The notes under the pieces were generated by a model that ran no database searches, had not been told where the DNA came from, and saw nothing but the letters and a program-made list of their open reading frames with translations. Of a DNA stretch of 64,000 nucleotides, positions 23,078 to 42,200 are shown in pieces. Position numbers and translations under genes: made by a program. Numbering within the stretch: position 1 is the first letter of the stretch; the number at the start of each line of letters is the position of its first letter. Source of the DNA: Escherichia phage vB_EcoM_JNE01; sequence record OR670491; one strand, 5' to 3'.

Positions 23078-23138
23078 ACTTGCACAGTACTGATAAAAGC
23101 GTATAATGTTTTACATCGAGAGCGGGAACTCTTCCCGC
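23078..23138 (+). promoter_or_regulatory. early-type promoter (TTGCAC-16-TATAAT, extended -10 TG) plus 5' stem-loop GCGGGAA-CTC-TTCCCGC
   Basis: consensus AGTACTTGCA...AGTACTG-TATAAT-GTTTTACATC then GC hairpin then SD. Confidence 0.55.
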
Positions 23139-23162
23139 TACACTTTAAGAGAGATTAATACG

Positions 23163-23525
23163 ATGGCGACTCAAATCACTAAAATCATTGCTAACCTGGT
23201 TAACTTCCGCGACGATATGAAAGATCTTCCGGCGGCAACGGTTAAAACTCACATTGACGCATACCGCGAACTGATTAAAATGCTGCCGCTTAAGCGTGAA
23301 CAATACGCCGCCACCGTGATGCTTGATGCGATGATCCATAAGATGATCGCCAGTGATTTAACGATGGCTTATCAGTATATGGGTGAATTGTTCGCGGTGT
23401 ATAGTAAACCAGTACCAGGAATGGAAAGTACAGAAGTATTACACGGTTTAAATTTAAAACAAGATGCATGGGATAATATGCCTCGTTTCCTGGTATGGGC
23501 TGACAGTGGCAAAATTTACGAATAA
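23163..23525 (+). CDS. hypothetical protein
   Basis: start moved to ATG at 23163 (MATQITKII) downstream of promoter hairpin; SD AAGAGAG. Confidence 0.6.
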   Translation: MATQITKIIANLVNFRDDMKDLPAATVKTHIDAYRELIKMLPLKREQYAATVMLDAMIHKMIASDLTMAYQYMGELFAVYSKPVPGMESTEVLHGLNLKQDAWDNMPRFLVWADSGKIYE

Positions 23526-23538
23526 GTTAAAAATTAGT

Positions 23539-23595
23539 TTGACAGTACTGAATAAAAGCGTATAATGTTTTACATCAGGTGGGGAATAGTTCCCC
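23539..23595 (+). promoter_or_regulatory. early-type promoter (TTGACA-16-TATAAT) plus 5' stem-loop GGGGAA-TAG-TTCCCC
   Basis: read directly. Confidence 0.55.
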
Positions 23596-23617
23596 ACTAT
23601 ATAAGAGGATTAAAAAA

Positions 23618-23857
23618 ATGGCTAAATCAAAAATGTTCTTAGGTCACAAAAATAAAACTCATTGGAATGTAAGCCTTTGGATTAATAACGATGAGGGATT
23701 GTATCGGTTGGCCCAGGACTTTATTAACGATAGCACTAATCGCAATGATGCGGCCCGTCATATGATGTTATTTTTAGAACAGACTGGACAAGATAAAACA
23801 CCGGACGGATTCAAATATAGCACTACTGCGATCCGTGCGGCAATGGTAGGAATGTAA
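23618..23857 (+). CDS. hypothetical small protein (paralog of 25659..25898)
   Basis: MAKSKMFLGHKNKTHWNVSLWINN...PDGFKYSTTAIRAAMVGM; SD AAGAGGA. Confidence 0.6.
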   Translation: MAKSKMFLGHKNKTHWNVSLWINNDEGLYRLAQDFINDSTNRNDAARHMMLFLEQTGQDKTPDGFKYSTTAIRAAMVGM

Positions 23858-23869
23858 TAGAATATATTT

Positions 23870-23906
23870 AAAGTACTATCATTTTTTTGCGATAGTACTT
23901 TATAAT
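23870..23906 (+). promoter_or_regulatory. dyad AAAGTACTATC-N10-GATAGTACTTT abutting TATAAT (operator-like)
   Basis: same dyad plus promoter upstream of the paralog at 36326-36364. Confidence 0.4.
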
Positions 23907-23943
23907 AGTGTTTTATTCATACACCAACGATAAGGGCAACAGC

Positions 23944-24210
23944 ATGAATATTAAGTATTTTGCGACGCGTGAACAAGCTCGGATCGCCGCTCGCCAGGAC
24001 GGGGCAACGTTTAAAGATATGGGCGTACAATCGGAACGTGGTAAACGTTGGGCCATTGTAAAGCGTAGTACCGCCAGATCATTACAGTACTGGTTAGCGG
24101 CCTTAAAAAGTCCCGATAGTGTATCGCGTCGAGTGGTAGAAATAAAGCTCGACCGAAAGGGCAACCGCGTGACCGTGTACCGTACTAAAAAGATAGCAGT
24201 ACTTGAATAA
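23944..24210 (+). CDS. hypothetical small protein (paralog of 36413..36808)
   Basis: MNIKYFATREQARIAARQDG...DRKGNRVTVYRTKK. Confidence 0.6.
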   Translation: MNIKYFATREQARIAARQDGATFKDMGVQSERGKRWAIVKRSTARSLQYWLAALKSPDSVSRRVVEIKLDRKGNRVTVYRTKKIAVLE

Positions 24211-24217
24211 AAAGTAC

Positions 24218-24276
24218 TTGCAAACTATGTTTAATGGCGTATAATGTTTTACATCGAGAGCGGGAACTCTTCCCGC
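24218..24276 (+). promoter_or_regulatory. early-type promoter (TTGCAA-16-TATAAT) plus 5' stem-loop GCGGGAA-CTC-TTCCCGC
   Basis: read directly. Confidence 0.55.
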
Positions 24277-24297
24277 CTATAACCTGGAGTAATAAAA

Positions 24298-24528
24298 ATG
24301 ACTAATATGTATATGACTGAAGTTAAAACCGTAAAAGATACTACCACGAATAAAACTACTTACTTACAGCGGATCTGCGGTGTATGGCAACGTATCAGCA
24401 AATCAAAGTACTTTAAATTAACATCATATGCAAATCGTTCGGATTCATTCAGTACTGAAATAAAAGGTAATAAAGTACACCAATACGGCACTTATTATTA
24501 TTACAGCCTGGACGCGATTGCAGTATAA
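24298..24528 (+). CDS. hypothetical small protein
   Basis: 76-aa ORF, SD GGAG. Confidence 0.6.
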   Translation: MTNMYMTEVKTVKDTTTNKTTYLQRICGVWQRISKSKYFKLTSYANRSDSFSTEIKGNKVHQYGTYYYYSLDAIAV

Positions 24529-24558
24529 GCAGTTTACAAATCTTTACAATTGCCGGTA

Positions 24559-24640
24559 TTGACTTATTTTGTCAGTACTGGCATAATGTATTCATTGGCA
24601 GATAAGCCGTAGCCCATAGGGTGCGGGAGTGTATCTATAG
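24559..24640 (+). promoter_or_regulatory. promoter (TTGACT/CATAAT) followed by conserved element AGCCCATAGGGTGCGGGAGTGTATCTAT
   Basis: seven copies of this element in the window, always downstream of a promoter. Confidence 0.45.
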
Positions 24641-24812
24641 AAAAATTAGTTTAGTATAGTTACAATTGTGCACCCGGTGGGTTAGCTGTTGTCATGGGGT
24701 ATATTATGCCAGTACTTGATAATTCTGTCAATACTTTTTTTTTACTATTCAGTACTGAAAACTATTTTTAAAAAGTACTTGCAAACTATGTTTAAAGGCG
24801 TATAATGTTTTA

Positions 24813-24895
24813 CATCAGGACGGGGAACGAAATAAGTAACTTCCCGTTAAGTAGCCCAGGAGTAAGGCACACGAAAAACTCCCCTGATAAAATAG
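24813..24895 (+). ncRNA. candidate structured leader / small RNA (about 80 nt)
   Basis: promoter-driven, no ORF, two hairpins; near-identical copy at 35214-35295. Confidence 0.3.
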
Positions 24896-24956
24896 TTTGA
24901 CAAATGTTTTTAAAAGCGTATAATACTTACATCAACTACTGAATGAGGGTTACAAA

Positions 24957-25568
24957 ATGAAAACTATCACTACTACTACTTTCGTTATGGATTTTTCTGA
25001 ATTGAACGCAGAACAACAAACGTCAGCTATCGAACTGGTTCGGGATCGTGAGCGTTCATGTGAGGATAATTTCTTTGCTGAGGGCGTTATCGAGTACTAT
25101 AAAGAAACAGTACTACCAGAATACGGCATAGATGAAGCTGAATTGCAATACAGTGGTTTTTGGTCGCAAGGTGACGGTGCATCAATCAGTACTGACAGCG
25201 TGGACGCAGTGAAGTTTTTACGCAAGATTAAAGCGTTAACGAAATATCGTTCTATCCGTCACTTGTTGAATGAAGATGATTTGGCAATGAGTGTAGAACG
25301 TTCACACTCTCGCTACGCACACGAAAACACGGTAAGCGGGTACATTGAATCGGCTTACACTGATTTAACCGCAAAACAAGAAACGTTAGTTAATGAGCTT
25401 GAGGAACTACTCACTGATACTATTCGTGAATTGTCCCGCAAGTTGTACCGTGATTTAGAGAATGCATATGAGGATCAATTCACTACTGAAAACATTACGG
25501 CACTGATTGAGGGTAACGAATATCAATTCAATGTTATTGATGGCGTAGTGGAATCAATCGAATATTAA
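24957..25568 (+). CDS. hypothetical protein
   Basis: 203-aa acidic ORF with its own promoter (TTGACA...TATAAT) and SD. Confidence 0.65.
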   Translation: MKTITTTTFVMDFSELNAEQQTSAIELVRDRERSCEDNFFAEGVIEYYKETVLPEYGIDEAELQYSGFWSQGDGASISTDSVDAVKFLRKIKALTKYRSIRHLLNEDDLAMSVERSHSRYAHENTVSGYIESAYTDLTAKQETLVNELEELLTDTIRELSRKLYRDLENAYEDQFTTENITALIEGNEYQFNVIDGVVESIEY

Positions 25569-25580
25569 TTTAAAAAGTAC

Positions 25581-25640
25581 TTGCAAACTAAGTTTAAAAG
25601 CGTATAATACTTTATATCGAGGCGGGGAGTGGTTCCCCGC
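25581..25640 (+). promoter_or_regulatory. early-type promoter plus 5' stem-loop GCGGGGA-GTGG-TTCCCCGC
   Basis: TTGCAA 25581-25586, TATAAT 25603-25608. Confidence 0.55.
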
Positions 25641-25658
25641 TCAAACGAGGATTTAAAA

Positions 25659-25898
25659 ATGGCTAGTACTAAAACTTACAACGGACACAAAAACAAAACT
25701 CATTGGAATGTAAGCCTTTGGATTAATAACGGTGAGTCATTGTATCGGCTTGCTCAAAGTTGCATCGCACAAAGTAGAACTAAAGATATTGCTGCGGAAT
25801 GTATGTACCGCAGATTAAAAGCCAACGGTACTACTACAACGCCGGACGGCTTTAAGTATAGCACTACTGCGATCCGTGCTGCAATGGTTGGAATGTAA
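25659..25898 (+). CDS. hypothetical small protein (paralog of 23618..23857)
   Basis: MASTKTYNGHKNKTHWNVSLWINN...PDGFKYSTTAIRAAMVGM. Confidence 0.6.
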   Translation: MASTKTYNGHKNKTHWNVSLWINNGESLYRLAQSCIAQSRTKDIAAECMYRRLKANGTTTTPDGFKYSTTAIRAAMVGM

Positions 25899-25955
25899 TA
25901 TTCAGTACTGAGATAATGGCGGGTAATAGTTCCCGCCTTTACTGAGGGTTATCTA

Positions 25956-26216
25956 ATGAGTAAAGTAATTAGCTATACAGCACTAAGCAAGACATTATCT
26001 ATTAGCCAGTGCACCGATGGTTATTGGCTATTTGATGAAACGCGTGGCATGAATTTAGCGATGCGTGCAAAAACTGCTGAGGCGGCGTATATTCAAGCAC
26101 TGGAATACTACCAGGAACGTTTAAAGGAAGTAGAAGAAGATTATAAAAGCCTCAAAGCGAAAGTAGATCATTTCGTCGGTCAATTCAACGAGGAAGACGA
26201 CGACAAACAATATTGA
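25956..26216 (+). CDS. hypothetical small protein
   Basis: 86-aa ORF preceded by hairpin GGCGGGTAATAGTTCCCGCC. Confidence 0.55.
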   Translation: MSKVISYTALSKTLSISQCTDGYWLFDETRGMNLAMRAKTAEAAYIQALEYYQERLKEVEEDYKSLKAKVDHFVGQFNEEDDDKQY

Positions 26217-26224
26217 AAAAGTAC

Positions 26225-26283
26225 TTGCAATTAGTTTTCAGTACTGTATAATGGTTTACATCAAAGGGAGAAATGGTTCTCCC
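26225..26283 (+). promoter_or_regulatory. early-type promoter plus 5' stem-loop GGGAGAA-ATGG-TTCTCCC
   Basis: TTGCAA 26225-26230, TATAAT 26247-26252. Confidence 0.55.
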
Positions 26284-26302
26284 TGGTAATGAGGAAAATA
26301 AA

Positions 26303-26524
26303 ATGGCTAATATCACTACTCTTTCCCAACTGGAAGCACTGGTGAAATCTATGCGGGAACATGCCGACAAAATCGGCGTACAAGATCCAGCCGTTTGCTT
26401 CTGCGACGAATTGAATGATGATACCCTGGTAATAGCAGAAGTCCAGGACGTTTCTAACTATTCCTCGCGTTACACTGGCGGCGTAGCAAATAAAGGCGAC
26501 TTCTGTTTATACCTTACAAAATAA
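26303..26524 (+). CDS. hypothetical small protein
   Basis: start moved to MANITTLSQ with SD GAGGAAA. Confidence 0.6.
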   Translation: MANITTLSQLEALVKSMREHADKIGVQDPAVCFCDELNDDTLVIAEVQDVSNYSSRYTGGVANKGDFCLYLTK

Positions 26525-26529
26525 CAACG

Positions 26530-26559
26530 CGGGGAGATAATAACTCCCCGTTACTTTTT
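26530..26559 (+). terminator. rho-independent terminator
   Basis: CGGGGAG-loop-CTCCCCG hairpin plus T-run. Confidence 0.6.
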
Positions 26560-26767
26560 CAGTACTGAATCATTTAATAGACGGATCTCGGCACCCGGTG
26601 GGTTAGTGACTGTTTCGTCTTGATGTAGTAATTATGCCAGTACTGGATGCACTTGTCAACAACTATTTTTCAAATACTTTTTATTAAAATACTTGCAATT
26701 AGTTTTTAAACGCGTATAATGTTTTGCATAGGGGGAGCGGTTCCCCTGGTAACTAAGGAATAATAAA

Positions 26768-27004
26768 ATGCTTGAACAAATCAAATCAACGTCTGCGAAT
26801 GTAACGGGAACGGTATCACACTTTACTAGTGATGAATCGCGTGGTGTTCCTTATTGTGCTGTACATGTAAACACTGATGGCAACTACTGGTTTACGGTTT
26901 ACGGATCATATTCATTTGGACGGCCAGGGCATCAAAAAATTCTGGATAAAGTACAACCAACGGGTAAAAATATCACTGCCGAAATGTTTTATAAAAAATC
27001 ATAA
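26768..27004 (+). CDS. hypothetical small protein
   Basis: 78-aa ORF with promoter, hairpin and SD upstream. Confidence 0.6.
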   Translation: MLEQIKSTSANVTGTVSHFTSDESRGVPYCAVHVNTDGNYWFTVYGSYSFGRPGHQKILDKVQPTGKNITAEMFYKKS

Positions 27005-27009
27005 AGTAC

Positions 27010-27068
27010 TTGCAATTAGTTTTTAGTACTGTATAATATTTTACATCGCAAGGGGAAACGGTTTCCCC
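27010..27068 (+). promoter_or_regulatory. early-type promoter plus 5' stem-loop GGGGAAA-CGG-TTTCCCC
   Basis: TTGCAA 27010-27015, TATAAT 27032-27037. Confidence 0.55.
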
Positions 27069-27088
27069 TGGTAACTAAGGATAATCAA

Positions 27089-27388
27089 ATGAAAGTTGCA
27101 ATCATCGCCCTGGCTTTATCTGTATCGTCTTTCGCTGTTAACGCTTCCGTTGATGTACCGCGTGAAAAATTCATTCAGTGCACTGTTGCAATGACTAACG
27201 AGGAAACGGCTGAGATTGTTACCAAATCCCTGGAACTGGCCCCTGCAATGTTTGCTAATGGCCCGTACCATGAAGAAGATGATCAGGGTAGCACGACCAT
27301 CTATTACGATGCAAAAAGTAAACGCGGTTCAGTTACTGTAATGGATACTGAGAAAGTTACATTCACGGGAGTAATTAATTGTTTTTAA
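27089..27388 (+). CDS. small secreted/periplasmic protein (Sec signal peptide)
   Basis: MKVAIIALALSVSSFAVNA/SVD: hydrophobic N-region with AxA cleavage motif. Confidence 0.65.
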   Translation: MKVAIIALALSVSSFAVNASVDVPREKFIQCTVAMTNEETAEIVTKSLELAPAMFANGPYHEEDDQGSTTIYYDAKSKRGSVTVMDTEKVTFTGVINCF

Positions 27389-27404
27389 TGAAGTACTGAA
27401 TCAT

Positions 27405-27434
27405 AAGCCCACTATAAGAAGTGGGCTTTTTTTA
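27405..27434 (+). terminator. rho-independent terminator
   Basis: AAGCCCACT-loop-AGTGGGCTT plus T-run. Confidence 0.65.
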
Positions 27435-27518
27435 TTGTAGTACTGAATACTTTAAAAATAGTTTTGAAATAGTAGTTGACATTACCAGGGAAAGGCGTAG
27501 AATGTATTACATCAGGAC

Positions 27519-27600
27519 GGGGAACACTAAGTAGACCGCCAGTAAGTCGAACGAAAAACTGGACACGACCTGGAAACTTTGATAAACTAACTTACACTTT
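27519..27600 (+). ncRNA. candidate structured 5' leader (diverged copy of the 80-nt element)
   Basis: begins CATCAGGACGGGGAAC like copies at 24813 and 35214. Confidence 0.25.
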
Positions 27601-27618
27601 AATTGAGGAATTAAAAAA

Positions 27619-28098
27619 ATGGCAAATGTAAAATCATTCTTTAAAGCACTGGTATCTTCTGACGTATCTATCGCCGCTGAATTGCTGGCTGACCTGGATA
27701 ATGATACCATGAAAGCAGTACGCAATAATTTTAATATGGCGTACAGTGCAGCAAAAGAACTGCAAGCCAAAAAGGTAGCAGAACTGGAAGCGGCAAAGGC
27801 AGAACGTGAAGCAGAACTGCAAGCAACAATCGAAAGCATCCAGGCGGCGGTAAGTGGATTGGATATCGAGATCGTAACCGATATGGCACATAAAGCCCTA
27901 GCTGCAAAATACGGTGAAGTAAAAGCGGTTAAAGAAAAGAAATGGATTCAGGACCGCGTTAACGTAGTACTTGACAACGGGGAAGAATATCTTATTCCTG
28001 TACGCGGTAACTGCATTGCCGTAGTACTGGACGCGATTAACTCCAGTGGTATGACACGCGAGGAATGGATCGAAGCTCATCGCAAAGTTGAAGCATAA
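27619..28098 (+). CDS. hypothetical protein with central coiled-coil-like segment
   Basis: 159 aa; AKKVAELEAAKAEREAELQATIESIQAAV. Confidence 0.65.
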   Translation: MANVKSFFKALVSSDVSIAAELLADLDNDTMKAVRNNFNMAYSAAKELQAKKVAELEAAKAEREAELQATIESIQAAVSGLDIEIVTDMAHKALAAKYGEVKAVKEKKWIQDRVNVVLDNGEEYLIPVRGNCIAVVLDAINSSGMTREEWIEAHRKVEA

Positions 28099-28119
28099 CA
28101 ATAAAAGTACTGAATCACT

Positions 28120-28147
28120 AGCCCACCTTAAACGGTGGGCTTTTTTG
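28120..28147 (+). terminator. rho-independent terminator
   Basis: AGCCCACC-TTAAAC-GGTGGGCT plus T-run. Confidence 0.65.
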
Positions 28148-28373
28148 TGTTTATCGTTTACCAGGCCACCAGCACCGCCTAGAAACGATTCTAACGCATT
28201 AAACTGATTATCTGATGCATTGCCCTAGCTGGTGGCGTTAAGGCTGTAAGAACGCGATTGAGAGCGTTTAAAGTATTTTGCAAAAAGTAATAAAAAGTAC
28301 TTGCACGATTAAGAGATTAGCGTATAATTAATTACATCAAGGCAAGACACCTTAACTAACTGAGGATATAAAG

Positions 28374-28526
28374 ATGAATACTTATGACCTGGATTGTTTT
28401 ACTTTACAAGTAATGTCAGTATGCAGTAAGAAAGATTGGTCATCAAAGGAATTTAAAGCAGTTATCGCGTGTGCAAAACACGGCAAGACTATCAATGAAA
28501 CGGCATCAATCATTGATAAACTTTAA
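28374..28526 (+). CDS. hypothetical small protein (50 aa, not in ORF track)
   Basis: hand-translated; promoter and SD GAGGA upstream. Confidence 0.45.
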   Translation: MNTYDLDCFTLQVMSVCSKKDWSSKEFKAVIACAKHGKTINETASIIDKL

Positions 28527-28595
28527 AAAATAGTTTGACAATAGTTTTAAGTACTGGCATAATACATACATCAACTACTGAATAGGAATTAAAAA

Positions 28596-28823
28596 ATGGC
28601 TATTATCATTACTCGCGTATCTGGTACTACTGGCAACGAACAAGTAGTTGCAGTCATTACCAACAAGGAAGGTGCGGAATTGCAAAATGCAATGAATACC
28701 TGGGCCGTTAATGAGTTCGGTCAGTGGGCAAGTGTAGCATACATTGAAACCTATCAAGTGCCGTCGATTAGTTTAACTGATTTGGGCGTTGAGCGTATCC
28801 TTTGCCTGGATGAATTAAATTAA
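28596..28823 (+). CDS. hypothetical small protein
   Basis: 75-aa ORF with promoter and SD. Confidence 0.6.
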   Translation: MAIIITRVSGTTGNEQVVAVITNKEGAELQNAMNTWAVNEFGQWASVAYIETYQVPSISLTDLGVERILCLDELN

Positions 28824-28908
28824 AAAAGTACTTGCAAAGTAAATCGAATAAAGTATAATACATTACATCAAGGGGAGAAATGGTTCTCCCCACTACAAGG
28901 AAACTAAA

Positions 28909-29052
28909 ATGAAAACTTGTCAATGTGGTCATAAATCTATTACGGGTTTTAAGCGGGGCGTTGCTCTTTGCCAGTACCATTATAATTTACAAGTATGGGG
29001 TAAAGAATGGGCCGACCAGGTGGAAGCAGCAAAGAAAGCAAAAAGTAAGTAA
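28909..29052 (+). CDS. hypothetical small protein (47 aa, not in ORF track)
   Basis: hand-translated MKTCQCGHKS...; promoter, hairpin and SD upstream. Confidence 0.45.
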   Translation: MKTCQCGHKSITGFKRGVALCQYHYNLQVWGKEWADQVEAAKKAKSK

Positions 29053-29140
29053 AATATTATCACAGTACTATTGACATAGTTTGATAGTACTGGCATAATA
29101 GATTTTATCAAGACAACATATTAATTTAAGGAATACAAAA

Positions 29141-29464
29141 ATGGCTAAAACTATCATTAACACCGTTTCCCTGGCTGCAATCCGTGCAATCAATGTTGAC
29201 GGTAAACGTTGGACTGATACATATGGCAATACTTATCATTCTTGTCATGTAAGCGTTGAACTGGATAACGGTTTGAATGATCTGGCGGTTGAATCATTTA
29301 CTTATGGCTATGAAGATGCATATCAACAAACGGCGTTAGATCTATTAAAGGAATCAGTAGACGGGCTTAATACTGATGAAACCTCCCTTACTCGTTTGTG
29401 CAATGATCTTAATATCCCGTTGCATTGTACTGTACAGAATGTTAAACGCAAAAAAGATCTTTAA
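29141..29464 (+). CDS. hypothetical protein (paralog of 35990..36313)
   Basis: shared RWTD..GNTYHSC.VS and C-terminal KRKKD. Confidence 0.6.
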   Translation: MAKTIINTVSLAAIRAINVDGKRWTDTYGNTYHSCHVSVELDNGLNDLAVESFTYGYEDAYQQTALDLLKESVDGLNTDETSLTRLCNDLNIPLHCTVQNVKRKKDL

Positions 29465-29544
29465 TTAGCTTTACTTTATGCAGATACTTTGATATAGTGT
29501 CTGCATAGGGGAAAGAAATTAAATTAACTTAAGAGGATCGTATA

Positions 29545-29814
29545 ATGAAAAATATCAGTACTTTAATCGATACAGGTACTCATGTTCGTCGGTCTATGGT
29601 TGCAACCAGTACTACAAAACAAGTACCAAGCGGTTATCTTGTATTTGTGCACGATGGTAAACTCCTGGAACGTTCAATCAATTTTGATGTTAAAAACAAT
29701 TGCCGTTTTATTATCTTTAAGCGTGAGCAATATAAAATTGATTTACCAGCAAAGCCCATAAGCGGGGCGTACAACGTGCAATCATTGTTTGAACGTCAAC
29801 CATACACCTATTAA
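29545..29814 (+). CDS. hypothetical small protein
   Basis: 89-aa ORF, SD GAGGA. Confidence 0.55.
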   Translation: MKNISTLIDTGTHVRRSMVATSTTKQVPSGYLVFVHDGKLLERSINFDVKNNCRFIIFKREQYKIDLPAKPISGAYNVQSLFERQPYTY

Positions 29815-29865
29815 TCAAAACATCGTTAGCGGTCGATTTAGGCCGCGTATATTGGGGATTATACC

Positions 29866-30138
29866 ATGAACGTTAATCAAGTACTGAATGAGATCGAAAG
29901 CATCATTAAACCAATGAAACGCATTGATGCTATGTTAACACCGGAAGAATGCCGCCTTTATGAGCGTTACAGCGTCGAACAAGTCCAGGCAATGGCTATG
30001 GCTACCCCAGCCGTTAAACCGCCTGAGAATGCGTTACAGGACGTTACAGGGGATTATATCATCAATCCAGTACTAGGGAAGATGGCTGCAATCACCGAAG
30101 ATCAACAAGATTACTTAAGTCAGTACTTAAAAGGTTAA
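29866..30138 (+). CDS. hypothetical small protein
   Basis: 90-aa ORF. Confidence 0.55.
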   Translation: MNVNQVLNEIESIIKPMKRIDAMLTPEECRLYERYSVEQVQAMAMATPAVKPPENALQDVTGDYIINPVLGKMAAITEDQQDYLSQYLKG

Positions 30139-30143
30139 TTAAT

Positions 30144-30353
30144 ATGCTTACTGTACAGGATAAGATCGACATCTTAAAGGTTAATATGTATGTGATTGAT
30201 GCAGTACCTGGTAAAGTATTTGCATACGATGACAGTACTGTAAGCGATTTCTACTATAGCCAGGACGTGGGGGATCTTTCTGTACAGTCGGTTATTGAAA
30301 ACGTAGTTAATGCAGCGTATGAGCATTTACTTTCAAATAGTACTTGCAATTAG
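30144..30353 (+). CDS. hypothetical small protein
   Basis: 69-aa ORF; 3' end runs into next promoter. Confidence 0.5.
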   Translation: MLTVQDKIDILKVNMYVIDAVPGKVFAYDDSTVSDFYYSQDVGDLSVQSVIENVVNAAYEHLLSNSTCN

Positions 30354-30422
30354 TTTTTAAACGCGTATAATGTTTTACATGAAGGGGAGAAATGATTCTC
30401 CCCACTAATTAAGGAATATGAA

Positions 30423-30569: not shown

Positions 30570-30650
30570 TACTTGCAATTAGTTTTTAGTACTGTATAAT
30601 AGTTTACATGAAGGGGAGAAATGATTCTCCCCAATAACAGGAGAATCAAA

Positions 30651-34636: not shown

Positions 34637-34722
34637 AAAGTACTTGCACAGTACTGAATAAAGTGTATAATGTTTTATATCGGAAGGGGAATAGTTCCCC
34701 TCCGAACAAAGAGGAAAGTATA

Positions 34723-35042: not shown

Positions 35043-35060
35043 AAATAATTGAAAAAGGGA

Positions 35061-35136
35061 TTGACTCCGGTCAGTCCCTTTGTTATTATATACGCATAGA
35101 AACAAATTAGCCCACCGGGTGCATAAATGTATCTAT
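35061..35136 (+). promoter_or_regulatory. terminator/promoter hairpin GGGATTGACTCCGGTCAGTCCC plus conserved element AGCCCACCGGGTGCATAAATGTATCTAT
   Basis: near-identical copies at 38336 and 41086. Confidence 0.45.
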
Positions 35137-35213
35137 TGTTTGCTGGTGGCTAGTACTGAAAACTATTTTTAAAAAGTACTTGCATTGTACTTAGAATCAA
35201 GTATAATGTTTTA

Positions 35214-35295
35214 CATCAGGACGGGGAACGAAATAAGTAACCCCGTTAAGTAGTCCAGGAGTAAGACATACGAAAAACTCCCCTGATAAAATAGT
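35214..35295 (+). ncRNA. candidate structured leader / small RNA (about 80 nt)
   Basis: second copy of the 24813-24895 element; differences preserve hairpin pairing. Confidence 0.3.
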
Positions 35296-35356
35296 TTGAC
35301 AATAGAAAGTAAACGAGTATAATACTTACATCAACCACTGATAAGGAAACATAAAA

Positions 35357-35632: not shown

Positions 35633-35718
35633 GTATTGACAAAGTATCTTAGTACTGTATAATAGTTTACATCAAGGGGGGGAATGGTTCCCCTCCTAAC
35701 TAAAAGAGAGAAATAAAA

Positions 35719-35901
35719 ATGGCTAAGTGCACTATCTGTAATAAAGAAATAGTATTAGTTCCAAGTGCCCGTGAACGTGCCGCTCGGTTCGGTGGCAAAG
35801 CGTCAGACTATACAAAAATGTTTACTACCCATACAGCTTGCCAGGTAGCAAAACGTTCACAAGAAAGCGTAGAATTAATGCGTAAACTTTCCAAAAAATA
35901 A
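35719..35901 (+). CDS. hypothetical small protein
   Basis: 60-aa ORF with promoter, hairpin and SD. Confidence 0.55.
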   Translation: MAKCTICNKEIVLVPSARERAARFGGKASDYTKMFTTHTACQVAKRSQESVELMRKLSKK

Positions 35902-35989
35902 GTATTGACAAAGTATCTTAGTACTGTATAATAGTTTACATCAAGGGGGGGGGAATGGTTCCCCTCCTAACAAAGAGAGAGAAATAAAA

Positions 35990-36313
35990 ATGGCTATGAT
36001 CCTTACCCAGAAAGTAGAACTGAAAATTGTAACCTCCTTTGACATTAAAGTTAATCGGTGGACTGATAGCCACGGCAATACTTACCACTCCTGCTACGTG
36101 TCCGCATTGATTGGTGATCGCTGGGAAGACCTGGGACACGAAACCTTTACATACGGTTACGGCACACAAGGCGAGTACACGGGTTTAGAAATCATTAAGG
36201 AAACTGTAATAGGTTTCAACCCGAAAGAGAAAGTACTACACAGAATTGAGAAAGAGATCAACAAAGAAATTACAGTTCGCTACTACGATGTAAAACGTAA
36301 GAAAGACATGTAA
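35990..36313 (+). CDS. hypothetical protein (paralog of 29141..29464)
   Basis: shared RWTD.HGNTYHSCYVS and C-terminal KRKKDM. Confidence 0.6.
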   Translation: MAMILTQKVELKIVTSFDIKVNRWTDSHGNTYHSCYVSALIGDRWEDLGHETFTYGYGTQGEYTGLEIIKETVIGFNPKEKVLHRIEKEINKEITVRYYDVKRKKDM

Positions 36314-36325
36314 TAGAATCCATTT

Positions 36326-36364
36326 AAAGTACTATTTGACATTGCCCAGATAGTACTTTATAAT
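36326..36364 (+). promoter_or_regulatory. dyad AAAGTACTAT-N-ATAGTACTTT enclosing TTGACA, abutting TATAAT (operator-like)
   Basis: TTGACA 36337-36342, TATAAT 36359-36364; dyad arms on both sides of -35. Confidence 0.45.
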
Positions 36365-36831: not shown

Positions 36832-36859
36832 GGCGGGAAGACAGTTCCCGCCTTTTTTA
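36832..36859 (+). terminator. rho-independent terminator
   Basis: GGCGGGAA-GACAG-TTCCCGCC plus TTTTTT. Confidence 0.65.
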
Positions 36860-36872
36860 TAGGACAAACAAA

Positions 36873-37127
36873 ATGATTAAGGTTCAACTATATAAAGATA
36901 ACATCTTACGGGTACACTATAAAGCACCTCAGAGAATCATCACAAAGGCCGTACAGCTTGCTAATGAGTTTATTAATGGTAACCTATTACCTAGGAAGTT
37001 AAGCAACGGGAAACTGCGTGTAATCGACGTGGACACTAACAACAGGATAGTAATCGAGAACACAGGAAAGATAAACCTTTATGAGCATCAACAATACAAT
37101 AAGAAAATAAAACTAATATCACGTTGA
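36873..37127 (+). CDS. hypothetical small protein
   Basis: 84-aa ORF. Confidence 0.55.
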   Translation: MIKVQLYKDNILRVHYKAPQRIITKAVQLANEFINGNLLPRKLSNGKLRVIDVDTNNRIVIENTGKINLYEHQQYNKKIKLISR

Positions 37128-37180
37128 CAGTACTCAATTGTTTTAGTACTATGTACACATACCAACACGGGAGAAACAAA

Positions 37181-37399: not shown

Positions 37400-37457
37400 T
37401 TGACAGTACTCAAATGTTTTAGTACTATATGTACATACCAACACGGGGGGAAACAAA

Positions 37458-37700: not shown

Positions 37701-37731
37701 TATAGTTTCATTAACTCAAGGAGATCATGCA

Positions 37732-38316
37732 ATGCGTAATTATACAAAATTCATCCGTACACTGTCAGAAATGGAAACCAACAAAGAGATCCTTTCAGCT
37801 TGTCGGTTAGCTGACCTGGAGATCATCGGTGCTGGTTCTTCCCGTATAGTTTTCGCTTTAAATGATCGGTTAGTGATTAAGGTCGCGAATTGTGATGCGG
37901 GTGTAGAACAAAATGAAACTGAATGTAAGGTATGGAATTTTTTAGACTATGACCGCCCTCAGTTGAAACAGTACTTTGCAAAGGTGCATATGCATTTATG
38001 CGATCCTGATAATATGTTTATCGTTATGGATCGGTTGAGTACTGCAAGCAAAGGCAGTGTGAAGCACGTAAACGCGTGCAATGAATTAAAGTACAATATT
38101 AAACGTAATGCAATCGAACGCCAGCACCGCTTTGCTGATGCACTACAACACGTTGATGATACATTATCAACACTAACGATAAGAGATATCAGAAAACAGA
38201 ATATCGGCCAGGATCGTAATGGACTTATTAAAGTACTTGATTACGGTTTAACCAGCAATATCTGGAATCAGTACTATAAAAAGCGTGATGTGGCAGCAAG
38301 TAAGGTAACACGATAA
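37732..38316 (+). CDS. protein-kinase-like protein (candidate phage Ser/Thr kinase)
   Basis: start moved to MRNYTKF; Gly-loop IGAGSSRIVF, VIKV lysine, catalytic-loop-like IRDIRKQNIG, DFG-like LDYGLT. Confidence 0.55.
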   Translation: MRNYTKFIRTLSEMETNKEILSACRLADLEIIGAGSSRIVFALNDRLVIKVANCDAGVEQNETECKVWNFLDYDRPQLKQYFAKVHMHLCDPDNMFIVMDRLSTASKGSVKHVNACNELKYNIKRNAIERQHRFADALQHVDDTLSTLTIRDIRKQNIGQDRNGLIKVLDYGLTSNIWNQYYKKRDVAASKVTR

Positions 38317-38335
38317 AAAAGATTAAAAAAAGGGA

Positions 38336-38416
38336 TTGACTCCGGTCAGTCCCTTTGCTATTATATATCCATTGAGAGATAACTCACTGACCCATAGGGT
38401 GCGGAAGTGTATCTAT
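38336..38416 (+). promoter_or_regulatory. terminator/promoter hairpin plus conserved element GACCCATAGGGTGCGGAAGTGTATCTAT
   Basis: copy of the module at 35061 and 41086. Confidence 0.45.
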
Positions 38417-38538
38417 TATATAAGTATTCAGTACTGAAAACTATTTTTAAAAAAGTACTTGCATTGTACTTAGAATCAAGTATAATGTTTTATATCGAGA
38501 GGGGGAAATGGTTCTCCCTGGCAATAAGGAATAAAATC

Positions 38539-38760
38539 ATGACTACAATGACTTGCATTTACGCTTCCAATCGTCTGAATGATGCGGCCTTTAATGTTGA
38601 TTCAGAATATCAATGTTATCGGGATGAAAATAAAAAAGTTTTTGTAGTTGATAATAATGGTTTCCATATTGAATTACAATCCGGCTTCACTGGTGTTGAT
38701 GGTAAATCAGTATGGGGCGTACAGGATGATAAAGGCACATATCATTTTAAACGTAATTAA
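38539..38760 (+). CDS. hypothetical small protein
   Basis: start moved to MTTMTCIYAS downstream of promoter hairpin. Confidence 0.55.
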   Translation: MTTMTCIYASNRLNDAAFNVDSEYQCYRDENKKVFVVDNNGFHIELQSGFTGVDGKSVWGVQDDKGTYHFKRN

Positions 38761-38843
38761 GTATTGACAAAGTATATCAGTACTGTATAATAGTTTACAT
38801 CAAGGGGAGAATAGTTCTCCCCGATACTAAAAGGAATAAAATC

Positions 38844-39248
38844 ATGACTACTACTAATCTTGCTCGGAATATCGCCAACGATAAAAATCATGCTGCAATG
38901 GTTGTTGGTTACATTGAAGCTATGCAATTCAGTACTGTACACAATGAGAACGGCGATTACCTGGAAGATTATGAATTATCAGAGCAAGCCCATCAAGCGG
39001 CAGTGATTGCATGTTCTCGCTTCATTGAGAAACACGGTAATGATCTGGAAGTAGTTCGCGGTATGTTTATTGATTACGGTTATGAGCAAGCTGGTCATGA
39101 TCTGTTCCTTACCCGCGAAGGTCACGGAACTGGTTTTTGGGATCGTGGTTTAGGTCACTATGGCGATGTATTCACGAAGTACTGCGAAGAAATCAACGTT
39201 TGCGATCCCTATGTAGGCGATGATAATCTAATCTATATGGGCGAATAA
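38844..39248 (+). CDS. hypothetical protein
   Basis: 134-aa ORF with promoter, hairpin and SD. Confidence 0.65.
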   Translation: MTTTNLARNIANDKNHAAMVVGYIEAMQFSTVHNENGDYLEDYELSEQAHQAAVIACSRFIEKHGNDLEVVRGMFIDYGYEQAGHDLFLTREGHGTGFWDRGLGHYGDVFTKYCEEINVCDPYVGDDNLIYMGE

Positions 39249-39335
39249 AAGTATTTGACAAAGTATATCAGTACTGTATAATAGTTTACATCAAGGGGAG
39301 AATAGTTCTCCCCGATACTAAAAGGAAACAAAATT

Positions 39336-39608
39336 ATGTCCAGCTACTCCGCTACTATGATCATTAAAGATATGAACGGTAATCCTACTTCTGCTGGTGG
39401 ATCATTTGGAAACATTAATTTAGATGGTCGGTTATCCATGCAATCAGCAATCGATGCAGCGAAAGAAGTTTTTAAGAATGAATGTACTGTTAGTAAGCTG
39501 GATTATATGGGATTTGCTATCGAAAAAACTAATCGTTTTGTGGACTACAAAAAACCACTGATGATTGATACTAACCTGAAAGCAAACGAAGTGGAGTACT
39601 TATTATGA
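39336..39608 (+). CDS. hypothetical small protein
   Basis: 90-aa ORF; promoter identical to that of 38844. Confidence 0.6.
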   Translation: MSSYSATMIIKDMNGNPTSAGGSFGNINLDGRLSMQSAIDAAKEVFKNECTVSKLDYMGFAIEKTNRFVDYKKPLMIDTNLKANEVEYLL

Positions 39609-39796: not shown

Positions 39797-39882
39797 AAAG
39801 TACTTGCATTGTAGTTAGATTAACGTATAATGTTTTACATAGAGCGGGGGAATAGTTCTCCCGCCAGTCCAGGAGATACACC

Positions 39883-40146
39883 ATGAACACTATCGAAATC
39901 ACTATCAATGCACACGTATACGACAACGTAATCATGCAAACTACTATGACCGCTAATGATACCAGTACTTTGCGGAATACTGTTATTAGTGCTGTATGTG
40001 CCGCTATCGGTGATGTCGCCCTGGAAAATGCAAAACACGTAAACGATGGTTTCACTATGTGCAAACGTGATAACGCAAAACATATCATCGTGGAAGGTTA
40101 CGGCGGTGTAGAATTTAATGTTTATATGAAAAAAGTACTTGCATAA
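39883..40146 (+). CDS. hypothetical small protein
   Basis: 87-aa ORF with promoter, hairpin and SD. Confidence 0.6.
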   Translation: MNTIEITINAHVYDNVIMQTTMTANDTSTLRNTVISAVCAAIGDVALENAKHVNDGFTMCKRDNAKHIIVEGYGGVEFNVYMKKVLA

Positions 40147-40213
40147 TAACTAAAACAAAGTATAATGTTTTGCATAGGGGGAGATATCCTCCCCCACTAA
40201 AAGGAGTAATAAA

Positions 40214-40438
40214 ATGGCTAACTTTGATGAACTGATGCGGGAAGTAGCTAACCTGGCAGAAGAGAAGAAATCATTCGATTCTATCTATAACACCGCTCAC
40301 CGTGATTCAGTACTGGCATGTAACCAGGATCAAAAAGATGAACTAATCGCCACCTATCATGAAGCATGGAAGTACTACCGACAATGGGAGAAAGAAGAAA
40401 GTGAGTCTACCATTGACGGCCTCAATAATCTAATCTAA
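40214..40438 (+). CDS. hypothetical small acidic protein
   Basis: 74-aa ORF with promoter, hairpin and SD. Confidence 0.6.
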   Translation: MANFDELMREVANLAEEKKSFDSIYNTAHRDSVLACNQDQKDELIATYHEAWKYYRQWEKEESESTIDGLNNLI

Positions 40439-40514
40439 AAGTTTTATTTCAGTACTATTGACATAGCTTGATAGTACTGATGTAATAACTTTACTAACTA
40501 CAAGGGGAAACATA

Positions 40515-40772
40515 ATGGATCAGTTCACACAATATCGGGTAAATCATCAAGCTATGGCCTACGTAGAAGACCATAAAACGTTACCAGTACTGCAACCAGT
40601 TAAAGGCCATATCTATCGTGCAATGTCGTGGTGTACGGCCCAGGATGGCTATAAAACCGTAGCCGTTGGTATGTATTGCGGTAATGGTGAATGGTTTGAT
40701 CCAAATAATCCGGTAGCCATTGACAGTACTGAAAAAATGAAATGGGCCGACTACATCGAAGATATTTCATAA
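40515..40772 (+). CDS. hypothetical small protein
   Basis: 85-aa ORF with promoter. Confidence 0.6.
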   Translation: MDQFTQYRVNHQAMAYVEDHKTLPVLQPVKGHIYRAMSWCTAQDGYKTVAVGMYCGNGEWFDPNNPVAIDSTEKMKWADYIEDIS

Positions 40773-40861
40773 AAACTATTTGACAGTACTAACCAGTAAT
40801 GTATAATGTTTTACATAGAGCGGGGAATAGTTCTCCCGCCAATAGTTTGGAGTAAAACATT

Positions 40862-41062
40862 ATGTCTATCGCTATCGCCCTGGTTGAAGTACTGAAAGAA
40901 GCTAAAGCCAACCAGATCGACGTAAAGATCCAGGAACTACAAAACGGCTTAATCGGCTGTACTTGTACCGCTGGTGGAGCGGCAGACTATCGAGAACACG
41001 AATCACTCGAATCACTGGTTCGGTATCTTACCATGATCGTTGATGATTGGAGAATCATCTAA
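40862..41062 (+). CDS. hypothetical small protein
   Basis: 66-aa ORF with promoter and hairpin; contains in-frame Chi octamer. Confidence 0.55.
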   Translation: MSIAIALVEVLKEAKANQIDVKIQELQNGLIGCTCTAGGAADYREHESLESLVRYLTMIVDDWRII

Positions 41063-41085
41063 CAAAAAAAGAATAAAAAAAGGGA

Positions 41086-41159
41086 TTGACTCCGGTCAGT
41101 CCCTTTGCTATTATATACGCATAGACAAAAACTAGCCCACAGGGTGCATAGGTGTATCC
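41086..41159 (+). promoter_or_regulatory. terminator/promoter hairpin plus conserved element AGCCCACAGGGTGCATAGGTGTATCC
   Basis: copy of the module at 35061 and 38336. Confidence 0.45.
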
Positions 41160-41308
41160 AAAATATATAGTTAATAACGGTGAGTAACTATCTGCTGGTG
41201 GAACTAAAACTATTAATAAAAAAGTATTGACAAAGTATATCAGTACTGCAATAATGTATCTCGTAGGGCGGCAATGGTGCGACGGCCCACAAAGTTAGGA
41301 GATTCAAA

Positions 41309-41641
41309 ATGACTACTTCAATCGCTATCGTTAAAGCTTTCATCCGTACTAATGTTTCCTCTGTATTCATCGACGGCCTCGACCGTAACGTAGAATACTC
41401 AATCATTATCGCACAAACGGCAAACGGTTCTCGGTACATCCTGAATGATAGTGAAGCAAATCACTACTACTTCACTAAAGCCACTGGCTTTAAACGCATC
41501 GATGCTGATGTAGTATACGCTAAGATGAATAAGCTGGTAGACAAGATTAACGCTAAAGGTACTATAGATTTACAGTACTGGACCGAAACCGATCCAGAAT
41601 ATGGATCTCACCGCTACCTGAATCCAGGTATCAAAATGTAA
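41309..41641 (+). CDS. hypothetical protein
   Basis: 110-aa ORF with promoter and SD. Confidence 0.6.
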   Translation: MTTSIAIVKAFIRTNVSSVFIDGLDRNVEYSIIIAQTANGSRYILNDSEANHYYFTKATGFKRIDADVVYAKMNKLVDKINAKGTIDLQYWTETDPEYGSHRYLNPGIKM

Positions 41642-41730
41642 AAAGTACTTGCATAGTACTTAGATTCATGTATAATGTTTTACATAGAGAGGGGGAAATG
41701 GTTCTCCCTCCTAAATTAAGGAGTATTGTC

Positions 41731-42132
41731 ATGACTTTTTCTATCAATTCTTATGCTGACGTTTTAGTACTGGCTCGGACTTTTGGTAAAGATGCACTGG
41801 AGTACGCTGTAAGTAATGGCACTATCCAACCGGAACAGTGCCGCATCATTGGAAACTGCAAACGTTGGGCGGTTTCCAATACTATTGCACTGGAAAACTT
41901 CCACGATGGCAACAATGAATATTCTGTTGATGTAGTATTCGAAGCCGTTGATCTCGGCGGTATCTATAATACTAACCTGAATGATGTGCGTATCGTTCGC
42001 ACTGGGTTCGGTGCTTATGATGTATCTATTCGTGAAGCTATGAACACCGGATACATTAGCAAGGACTTACTTGCTCACATCATGCAGCTGTGTACGGAAC
42101 GTAACGAAGCACGCACTATCTTAGGACTGTAA
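41731..42132 (+). CDS. hypothetical protein
   Basis: start moved to MTFSINSYADV downstream of promoter hairpin; SD AAGGAG. Confidence 0.6.
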   Translation: MTFSINSYADVLVLARTFGKDALEYAVSNGTIQPEQCRIIGNCKRWAVSNTIALENFHDGNNEYSVDVVFEAVDLGGIYNTNLNDVRIVRTGFGAYDVSIREAMNTGYISKDLLAHIMQLCTERNEARTILGL

Positions 42133-42200
42133 GCGTTACACATCACCAAACATCATAGGCCGCCTTGTAGCGGCCTTAACTATATCAGGAGTACATACAC

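Follow-up and report, generated by a model that had tools for sequence, protein, structure and literature searches.

Why would a phage place nearly the same strong promoter, and the same kind of small hairpin, in front of one short gene after another? The question is raised by Escherichia phage vB_EcoM_JNE01, of which we analysed one stretch of 64,000 nucleotides (nt; sequence record OR670491; hereafter the window). Between positions 23,078 and 42,200, a first-pass annotation made from the sequence alone had claimed more than 35 cassettes, each consisting of a promoter, a 5' hairpin and one small gene. Its observation is partly confirmed here, and its interpretation, which put the hairpin at the 5' end of each mRNA and saw the cassettes as possible drivers of gene shuffling, is partly supported. 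We are highly confident in the description of the cassette itself: a host promoter, a near-terminal hairpin, a ribosome-binding site (RBS) and one small gene. Such cassettes are ordinary in principle, being phage early promoters, but they are real, highly non-random and unusually regular. Their number is lower than first thought, with 24 hairpin cassettes recognized by a covariance model among about 51 promoters.

The claim of a dense, same-strand array of consensus promoters holds. On the + strand between 23.0 and 42.2 kb, the pattern TTGACA-16/18-TATAAT is matched at 10 or more of its 12 positions by 39 sites, at 11 or more by 20 and perfectly by 13, whereas a first-order Markov simulation gives chance expectations of 7.9±3.1, 0.6±0.7 and 0.02, respectively. 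The - strand of the same region has 5, 3 and 0 sites at these thresholds. The total of about 51 convincing + strand promoters was reached by eye and script together. They comprise a class with TATAAT, a 16-nt spacer and TTGCAA/T/C or TTGACA as the -35 hexamer, a class with TGG-CATAAT and a 17-nt spacer, and a few promoters with TACTAT. The TTGCAA/T/C hexamers are preceded by AGTAC, and the sequence upstream of the cassette promoters is AT-rich (AAAAAGTA). All 24 promoters with a hairpin are of the TATAAT type (one has TATAGT). Besides these, about 15 promoters have no hairpin, three have a leader of about 95 nt and six serve a short noncoding element. The annotated extended -10 TG does not apply to the TATAAT class, where in CAGTACTG-TATAAT the TG abuts the hexamer, one base off the extended -10 register; a true extended -10 is confined to the hairpin-less TGG-CATAAT class. 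That nearly every small gene has a private cassette was likewise an overstatement. By our own count from the list of open reading frames, the region of about 19 kb holds roughly 53 small genes. A promoter of its own precedes about 43 of these, promoter and hairpin together precede 24, and about 10 go without.

The 24 cassettes share one layout. Downstream of the -10 follow [AG]NTTTACAT[CGA], a few purines, a GC-rich stem-loop, a Shine-Dalgarno sequence (SD) and ATG. The stem has 8-10 bp and the form GGGRRAA-loop-TTYYCCC. A search of all 64 kb, filters off, with the covariance model derived from these cassettes returned exactly these 24 sites on the + strand, at 22.8-33.8 bits. The best + strand match outside them reached 16.9 bits (25914-25941), and the - strand matches (at most 19.1 bits) were the reverse complements of the same 24 sites. 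Rfam at the gathering threshold had no match in the whole window. The model and loop-anchored scripts were adopted because plain MAFFT alignments, both of whole leaders and of loop-anchored segments, misplaced the arms; on the whole-leader alignment, RNAalifold recovered only 5 pairs at -2.9 kcal/mol.

All cassettes lie on the + strand and, unless stated, have a 16-nt spacer and TATAAT. Cassette 1 (23080-23165) has TTGCAC, the -10 at 23102, the stem-loop AGCGGGAA-CTC-TTCCCGCT, an SD and the ATG at 23163, with the model matching at 23117-23143 (23.7 bits). Cassette 2 (23539-23620) has TTGACA, the -10 at 23561, GGTGGGGAA-TAG-TTCCCCACT and the ATG at 23618 (model 23575-23601, 31.8 bits). The next five all have TTGCAA: cassette 3 (24218-24300; -10 at 24240) with GCGGGAA-CTC-TTCCCGC and the ATG at 24298 (model 24255-24281); cassette 4 (25581-25661; -10 at 25603) with GGCGGGGAG-TGG-TTCCCCGCT and the ATG at 25659 (model 25618-25644); cassette 5 (26225-26305; -10 at 26247) with AGGGAGAA-ATGG-TTCTCCCT and the ATG at 26303 (model 26262-26288); cassette 6 (26693-26770; -10 at 26715) with TAGGGGGA-GCGG-TTCCCCTG and the ATG at 26768 (model 26726-26752); and cassette 7 (27010-27091; -10 at 27032) with AGGGGAAA-CGG-TTTCCCCT and the ATG at 27089 (model 27047-27073). 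TTGCAA is also found in cassette 8 (28832-28911; -10 at 28854), whose stem-loop GGGGAGAA-ATGG-TTCTCCCC precedes the ATG at 28909 (model 28869-28895) and folds at -13.9 kcal/mol (z -3.1). The same hexamer and the same arms, here with the loop ATGA, recur in cassette 9 (30344-30425; -10 at 30366; ATG at 30423; model 30381-30407) and cassette 10 (30573-30653; -10 at 30595; ATG at 30651; model 30610-30636), both GGGGAGAA-ATGA-TTCTCCCC. Cassette 11 (31176-31257; TTGCAA; -10 at 31198) repeats AGGGGAAA-CGG-TTTCCCCT before the ATG at 31255 (model 31213-31239), and cassette 12 (31612-31696; TTGACA; -10 at 31634) has GGGGAGAA-AAAC-TTCTCCCC and the ATG at 31694 (model 31649-31675).

Cassette 13 (33726-33803) combines TTGCAT with a 17-nt spacer and TATAGT at 33749; its stem-loop is AGGGGAA-ACATC-TTCCCCT and its ATG lies at 33801 (model 33761-33787). 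Cassette 14 (34347-34426; TTGACA; -10 at 34369) has one A.C mismatch in GGAGAGAA-ATGA-TTCTCCCC, before the ATG at 34424 (model 34384-34410). Then come cassette 15 (34644-34725; TTGCAC; -10 at 34666) with GGAAGGGGAA-TAG-TTCCCCTCC and the ATG at 34723 (model 34680-34706); cassette 16 (35636-35721; TTGACA; -10 at 35658) with AGGGGGGGAA-TGG-TTCCCCTCCT and the ATG at 35719 (model 35673-35699, 33.8 bits); cassette 17 (35905-35992; TTGACA; -10 at 35927) with GGGGGGGGAA-TGG-TTCCCCTCCT and the ATG at 35990 (model 35944-35970); and cassette 18 (38459-38541; TTGCAT; -10 at 38481) with AGGGGGAA-ATGG-TTCTCCCT and the ATG at 38539 (model 38497-38523). Cassettes 19 (38764-38846; -10 at 38786; ATG at 38844; model 38800-38826) and 20 (39255-39338; -10 at 39277; ATG at 39336; model 39291-39317) both have TTGACA and GGGGAGAA-TAG-TTCTCCCC, and their leaders are identical. 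The last four are cassette 21 (39804-39885; TTGCAT; -10 at 39826) with GCGGGGGAA-TAG-TTCTCCCGC and the ATG at 39883 (model 39841-39867); cassette 22 (40139-40216; TTGCAT; -10 at 40161) with GGGGGAG-ATATC-CTCCCCC and the ATG at 40214 (model 40173-40199); cassette 23 (40780-40864; TTGACA; -10 at 40802) with GCGGGGAA-TAG-TTCTCCCGC, which has one bulge, and the ATG at 40862 (model 40816-40842); and cassette 24 (41649-41733; TTGCAT; -10 at 41671) with GAGGGGGAA-ATGG-TTCTCCCTC and the ATG at 41731 (model 41687-41713).

Which part of the genome is this? The window comes from an Asteriusvirus, a jumbo coliphage of the PBECO4/121Q/G17 type. With megablast, positions 23,000-31,000 matched 195 phage records, the best being the jumbo E. 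coli Asteriusvirus phages CMSTMSU, vB_Ec-M-J, phAPEC6, G17, PBECO4 and 121Q at 88-96% identity; these matches are patchy, in several pieces that cover 50-96% of the query. In vB_Ec-M-J, the DNA that matches the window lies within bases 1-21525, which carry the annotation Direct Terminal Repeats (21,525 bp), and position 21,340 of the window aligns with position 1 of that record. On the right, the first bases of the G17 record align at about 42,560. These two alignments indicate that the cassette region is essentially the phage's entire terminal repeat. This direct terminal repeat (DTR) measures about 21 kb, has approximate limits of 21340 and 42560 on the + strand, and holds all the cassettes. 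A DTR of 20,668 bp has been described for the relative Sharanji (PMC11895373), and the more distant relative CBB has a 22.5-kb repeat with RpoD-like promoters and short genes.

For the geometry of the hairpin we used 103 copies, namely the + strand model matches in the window and in the terminal repeats of vB_Ec-M-J, G17, 121Q and phAPEC6. The CMSTMSU locus, flagged UNVERIFIED, was excluded from the statistics; a script found only 4 cassettes there, probably due to sequence errors. The annotated promoter layout is confirmed in this set, with a perfect TATAAT in 96 copies and a 16-nt spacer in 99. The hairpin follows at 10-13 nt from a -10 in all 24 cassettes of the window, and 89 of the 103 copies have their first paired base at that distance downstream. 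E. coli RNA polymerase initiates 6-9 nt after the -10, so by its geometry the hairpin is transcribed and lies near the 5' end of the mRNA, as the first-pass annotation had it. Transcription probably starts at an A at position 6 or 8 after the -10 (position 7 is C), and if the start is the 8th nt, the predicted unpaired 5' tail is 1-6 nt long, with a mean of 4. The end of the stem is 11-23 nt from the ATG and about 4-10 nt from the SD, closer than the 10-15 nt originally described. The distance from the -10 to the loop has a standard deviation of 1.2 nt, and that from the loop to the ATG one of 2.5 nt.

The leaders are predicted to fold as a single hairpin with the SD and AUG open, at -11.9 to -16.8 kcal/mol (z -1.7 to -3.1). 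The mean for the stem-loop is -13.1 kcal/mol, and 4.6% of 35-nt background windows reach -10 or less. Deleting the 5' arm in silico lowered SD accessibility from 0.66 to 0.52, a weak effect. The loops vary in both sequence and length, and include TAG, ATGG, ATGA, CGG, CAC, CTC, AAAC, ATATC and ACATC.

Is the pairing itself under selection? The 103 copies represent 73 distinct sequences, each with 7-13 pairs. Chimeras that join the 5' half of one copy to the 3' half of another fold at -10.7 kcal/mol on average, compared with -13.1 for the native hairpins. In 5,000 such permutations the mean never fell below -11.5 (standard deviation of the mean 0.23), which places the native value about 11 standard deviations better. 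In the model alignment, 8 of the 10 pair positions show double changes, and one position occurs as GC, AU, GU, UA and CG. The covariation check that had been proposed across the copies was thus run, and none of 500 shuffles reached the observed score. Compensatory changes are also seen between orthologues, of the A-U to G-C and the U-A to A-U type. At cassette 7, AGGGGAAA/TTTCCCCT is replaced by AGGGGGAG/TTCCCCCT, an A-U to G-C change, and in a second switch GTGGGGAA/TTCCCCAC is replaced by GAGGGGAA/TTCCCCTC. The stems also include 44 G.U pairs, and folding slightly favours the sense strand (-13.1 kcal/mol, versus -12.2 for the antisense strand, p=0.002). Judged from this comparison of sequences, the pairing is maintained by selection, most simply as RNA, since the two arms covary across five phages. 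The earlier statement that the stem varies while pairing is kept therefore stands as regards pairing. The variation is narrower than it implied, as all stems belong to one sequence family (G-run ... C-run, GGGRRAA/TTYYCCC), and for this reason much of their likeness reflects common descent.

The proposed link to modular gene shuffling is also supported. We placed breakpoints by chained BLAST matches between the window and four relatives; 25 of the 39 distinct breakpoints fall in promoter-cassette intervals, which span 23% of the region. Nine gene indels are flanked by 44-123 bp of overlapping cassette homology, in a recurrent pattern: the genome without the gene has a single cassette that matches both cassettes around that gene in the other genome. 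Examples in the window are 35,725/35,893, 38,855/39,249 and 39,842/40,130, with the reverse case at 29,024/29,147. Cassette 16, for instance, is one of two direct repeats around a gene absent from 121Q and phAPEC6. Cassettes 19 and 20 bracket a gene that is absent in the same two phages, whose single cassette matches both with a 98-bp overlap. Hairpin-less promoters serve as breakpoints too, e.g., 28341/28584. Indels with overlapping homology of this kind are, as far as sequence comparison can tell, the signature of recombination between repeated cassettes. The cassettes also mark where therapeutic jumbo phages gain and lose accessory genes.

The modules also reach beyond Asteriusvirus. The commonest cassette is present in 52 phage records, four of which are genomes of about 140 kb (A73, A7_1, W70 and LTH01). 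Among these four we examined A73, which is classified in the Vequintavirinae (rV5-like). In 12 kb of A73 the covariance model finds 5-6 cassettes of the same layout; the counterpart of cassette 8 is 95.6% identical. At least five small genes of the window occur in A73 at 75-88% identity and in a different order. Since both cassettes and genes are shared in another order, the modules appear to move between unrelated phage lineages, and the sharing points to recent exchange. The stretch of A73 at positions 5500-9800 contains such cassettes together with several small genes known from the window, and nucleotide identity there is 75-95%. A scan of IMG/VR with the commonest cassette string returned phage 121Q only. 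In the open-access text of the PBECO4/121Q, CBB, Sharanji, rV5 and wider Asteriusvirus or cappable-seq literature we found no account of these cassettes, nor mapped starts; the CBB and rV5 papers list RpoD-like promoters and nothing more on such units.

The closest known relatives in design are the promoter-early stem-loops (PeSLs), described in the T4-like phages RB49/phi1, PST/T4 and nt-1/KVP40 (Arbiol et al. 2010, PMC2839356; Comeau et al. 2014, PMC4122927). The resemblance that had been pointed out is one of kind. The repeated unit is in both cases a composite that joins one small ORFan and its SD to a G-run/C-run stem-loop and a sigma-70-consensus early promoter with AT-rich sequence upstream. 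The units of both kinds crowd into a hyperplastic early region where small genes of unknown function abound, and in both they delimit the indels and replacements seen between close relatives. The architecture differs. The PeSL stem-loop has five reported placements, namely in the spacer, over either hexamer, upstream or immediately ahead of the start site, all at or before that site (PMC2839356), and in the RB49 intergenic regions that we inspected, the stem is in the spacer (TTGACA-GGGGATC...GATCCCC-TATAAT) or over the -10. The RB49 stem thus lies outside its cassette's own message, whereas here it is fixed in the 5' untranslated region (UTR), 10-13 nt after the -10. The lineage is a different one (Asteriusvirus, and also Vequintavirinae), and the location is a terminal repeat. 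Because of the stem placement we file the cassettes apart from PeSLs: they work like PeSLs for genome plasticity, but they are a new architecture and not a PeSL member. With them, the PeSL idea of regulatory repeats that double as expression units and as linkers for recombination is no longer limited to T4-like phages but takes in jumbo Asteriusvirus and rV5-like phages as well, in a layout that differs in that the stem-loop belongs to the message.

What, then, might the hairpin do? We tentatively propose, as a reading with a substantial chance of being right but no better than an even one, that it is a near-5'-terminal stabilizer of the mRNA and an insulator of the RBS, and that the cassettes are modular units for early-gene expression in the DTR. 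The module consists of a near-consensus host sigma-70 promoter (A-rich upstream sequence, TTGCAA or TTGACA, 16-nt spacer, TATAAT), a conserved initial transcribed sequence ACAUC/G/A, and an 8-10-bp G-run/C-run hairpin that is predicted to begin about 3-8 nt into the transcript. After the hairpin come a short linker rich in A and a strong SD, then one small gene with its start codon. Host RNA polymerase would fire all cassettes once the genome end enters the cell. Each early message would receive a structured 5' end, either as a primary transcript or after read-through RNA is cut in the AU-rich promoter sequence just 5' of the hairpin. This end could slow 5'-end-dependent decay (RppH / RNase E), while the hairpin would keep RBS folding independent of upstream sequence. 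Judging from the comparative breakpoints, the cassette repeats of about 90 bp also act as homology patches for the insertion, deletion and exchange of single genes among relatives, and for exchange with rV5-like phages.

The nearest functional parallels are the 5' UTRs of ompA and papA, which, together with synthetic 5' hairpins, are said to be 5'-terminal stabilizing stem-loops of E. coli mRNAs. As in these, a stable near-5' hairpin is followed by an open RBS, and pairing rather than exact sequence is kept. Unlike them, the element recurs on 24 messages in a single phage, its stabilizing role is proposed by analogy, and its predicted tail is at or beyond the reported protection limit. Phage T5 offers a parallel for the setting, as its pre-early (first-step-transfer) region lies in the terminal repeat. 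Both repeats carry small host-takeover genes behind strong host-type promoters and would be the first DNA expressed. However, the two are unrelated in sequence, the present phage is not known to take up its DNA in two steps, and we know of no conserved 5'-UTR hairpin module in T5.

Several points weigh against the stabilizer and insulator reading. Emory, Bouvet and Belasco reportedly found in 1992 that protection needs a 5' tail of about 4 nt or less; with predicted tails of up to 6 nt, several cassettes are borderline or beyond this limit. About 15 equally strong promoters in the same region lack the hairpin, and since they work without one, the hairpin is dispensable for expression. It is confined to the promoter type with TATAAT and a 16-nt spacer, so that its recurrence partly reflects common descent of one duplicated module. 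A control in which the arms are slid by one gives a similar percentage of paired cells, owing to the G and C runs, and the z-scores of single sequences are modest. The enrichment of breakpoints is partly expected, as only intergenic breakpoints leave genes intact. Finally, scanning RNase E readily bypasses simple stem-loops set back from the extreme end (PMC9943677). On the same grounds we rejected an obstacle to RNase E scanning as the main mechanism, simple orthogonal stem-loops being bypassed (PMC9943677). An aid to promoter escape was also set aside, by reasoning only, as the stem cannot form until well past escape. Antitermination in the manner of lambda nut boxB or HK022 put was rejected too. 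These are likewise small hairpins early in a phage early transcript, but boxB depends on the reading of a conserved loop, with one or two copies per genome, whereas here the loops vary among 24 copies. No N-like protein was recognized.

If the hairpin is not a stabilizer, it could be a PeSL-type attenuator, whose stem would stop or weaken read-through from the upstream gene and leave each gene to its own promoter. This is the role proposed for PeSL stems, and one of the RB49/phi1 stem-loops, which share the G-run/C-run flavour, cut lacZ as strongly as rrnB T1 (PMC2839356). Most gene junctions here are without another terminator, and promoters would otherwise add up along a unit. However, the cassette sequence argues against it. 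There is no U tract, with at most three T in the 8 nt downstream of the stem in 102 of the 103 copies and at most two in 91, and none of the 24 cassette hairpins was flagged as terminator-like on the + strand, though eight canonical terminators were flagged in the same region. By its sequence, the cassette hairpin is therefore not an intrinsic terminator. Being downstream of its own start, the stem would also affect its own transcript equally, unlike in RB49, and an attenuator seems to us unlikely. We similarly doubt, without dismissing it, that the hairpin is a recognition tag, to which a phage or host protein would bind and so mark the early messages, be it a repressor or nuclease for timed shut-off or a protector from phage-induced decay. 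The stem sequence is more conserved than pairing requires, with GGGRRAA/TTYYCCC in nearly all copies, though common descent can account for this. The tight spacing from the -10 would also fit, and one tag on 24 messages would permit coordinate control. T4 Srd stimulates RNase E. The phage rV5, whose relatives share the cassettes, encodes a Srd homologue (PMC3606486). On the other side, no RNA-binding protein was recognized among the ten largest proteins of the region, and the loops vary in sequence and length. Known RNA-hairpin tags such as boxB and the MS2 operator are read largely via the loop, so a loop-specific site of that type is disfavoured. In a bolder form that we hold equally doubtful, the hairpin would be a 'self' tag common to the early mRNAs of Asteriusvirus and rV5-like phages, which exempts them from phage-triggered destruction of host mRNA or makes them a target of timed shut-off. 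If so, dozens of unrelated accessory genes would form one regulon, swappable between phages with its control attached; any such shared control tag would make a phage early regulon portable between lineages.

Two further explanations do without a function of the RNA, and we consider both rather improbable. In one, the inverted repeat acts as DNA, as a recombination hot spot, a nuclease target or the operator of a dimeric repressor at +5 to +27, and the RNA hairpin is a by-product. Indels are indeed bounded by cassettes, and the authors of the PeSL work, who placed one crossover in the loop, speculated that a recombination protein could target GGGG...CCCC (PMC2839356). Yet the G.U pairs would be A.C mismatches on the other strand, and it is the sense strand that folds better. 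Arm spacing varies by 2 bp and the outer positions switch among four base pairs, unlike in an operator, and as the breakpoints at hairpin-less promoters (28341/28584) show, plain homology suffices. The other explanation is that repeated copying of one ancestral module of promoter and hairpin carried the hairpin along as a hitch-hiker, with no function of its own. This would account for its restriction to one promoter type, for the many promoters without it and for identical neighbouring cassettes (38786 and 39277). It fits poorly with the 7-13 pairs retained by 73 distinct versions, with chimeras that fold 2.5 kcal/mol worse, with the compensatory changes between orthologues and with the persistence of the design in two unrelated phage lineages. 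At least 73 natural variants of one 5'-UTR hairpin on strong promoters are a ready series for tests of what near-terminal structure does to mRNA life and translation in E. coli.

The hairpin-less leaders resemble the cassette leader minus the stem module (ACATCAA-CTACTGA...AGGA...ATG). On the + strand, TTGACA/16/TATAAT promoters of this kind are found at 24897-24924 (gene at 24957), 32197-32224 (gene at 32269), 33309-33336 (the GNAT acetyltransferase gene at 33366) and 35296-35323 (gene at 35357), where the promoter is the second in a two-promoter leader. TTGCAC/16/TATAAT lies at 28301-28328 (gene at 28374) and TTGACA/17/TATAAT at 36336-36364 (gene at 36413). TTGACA/17/TGG-CATAAT occurs at 28535-28563, with a true extended -10 (gene at 28596), and at 29071-29099 (gene at 29141); the variant TGA-CATAAT, also with TTGACA and 17 nt, is at 31935-31963 (gene at 31999). 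The TACTAT type, TTGACA/17/TACTAT, is seen at 37124-37152 (gene at 37181) and 37400-37428 (gene at 37458). A TTGACA/17/AATAAT promoter at 41227-41255 (gene at 41309) has a different, imperfect stem (GGGCGGCAATGGTGCGACGGCCC). The leader of about 95 nt forms two hairpins (CAGGACGGGGAAC...CTCCCCTGATAAAATAG). At 24779-24900 on the + strand (TATAAT at 24801) it runs into the next promoter, and further copies are at 35180-35300 and 27476-27610, so that it separates tandem promoters (24779-24924, 35180-35323 and 27476-27610). It is also present in the rV5-like phage A73.

Canonical intrinsic terminators, a hairpin with a T run, were flagged on the + strand at 26529-26551, 27405-27428, 28120-28141, 31036-31063, 35054-35081, 36832-36852, 38329-38356 and 41079-41106. 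Together with two unflagged candidates (~32,421-32,448 and ~42,153-42,176), they mark off about ten units, each with several promoters. One terminator-like hairpin, AAAGGGATTGACTCCGGTCAGTCCCTTT, holds the -35 (TTGACT) of the promoter of the short noncoding element. This combined stop-and-restart unit is found four times, at 31036-31071, 35054-35089, 38329-38364 and 41079-41114. The noncoding element itself has the invariant core CCCAYMGGGTGC and occurs in nine copies, compared with 0.23 expected, at 24613, 31098, 32777, 35111, 38391 and 41136 on the + strand and at 22441, 24670 and 26591 on the - strand. On either strand, a sigma-70 promoter of its own precedes each copy by about 25 nt. The copies could be a family of small RNAs, or a site for a protein; across all nine, RNAalifold gave no covariation support.

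As for the genes, nine of the ten largest proteins of the region match PHROGs families of unknown function and one a DksA-like family, while Pfam adds one GNAT. The DksA-like zinc-finger protein, from the protein family scan, is encoded at 33045-33302 and the GNAT acetyltransferase, from the Pfam scan, at 33366-33722. A 199-aa protein (37717-38316) has a weak, sub-threshold protein-kinase match (E 0.004), and the remaining seven match families of unknown function only. ARAGORN found no tRNA.

The left end of the DTR (21000-23000) contains about 1.7 kb of noncoding DNA with dense short direct repeats. They include tandem units of GGCTAAAC near 22170-22240 and GATTCAGTACTGAATGATAGTACTGAATAATAGT...TAGTTCCCCT blocks that recur at 22880-23050. 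This stretch is probably tied to the genome ends or to packaging.

The palindrome AGTACT, a ScaI site, is found 301 times in the 64 kb, 14-fold more than the 21.5 copies expected, in coding and noncoding DNA alike. It is enriched 15-21-fold in four other Asteriusvirus loci and 1.6-fold in the rV5-like phage, and 50 kb of RB49 has 0 copies. Two islands of 2.7 and 4.9 kb, at 42426-45166 and 47963-52906, are free of it. Over-representation this strong is unusual. Many promoter spacers contain the palindrome (CAGTACTG-TATAAT), and it also lies beside the -35 (AAGTACTTGCA).

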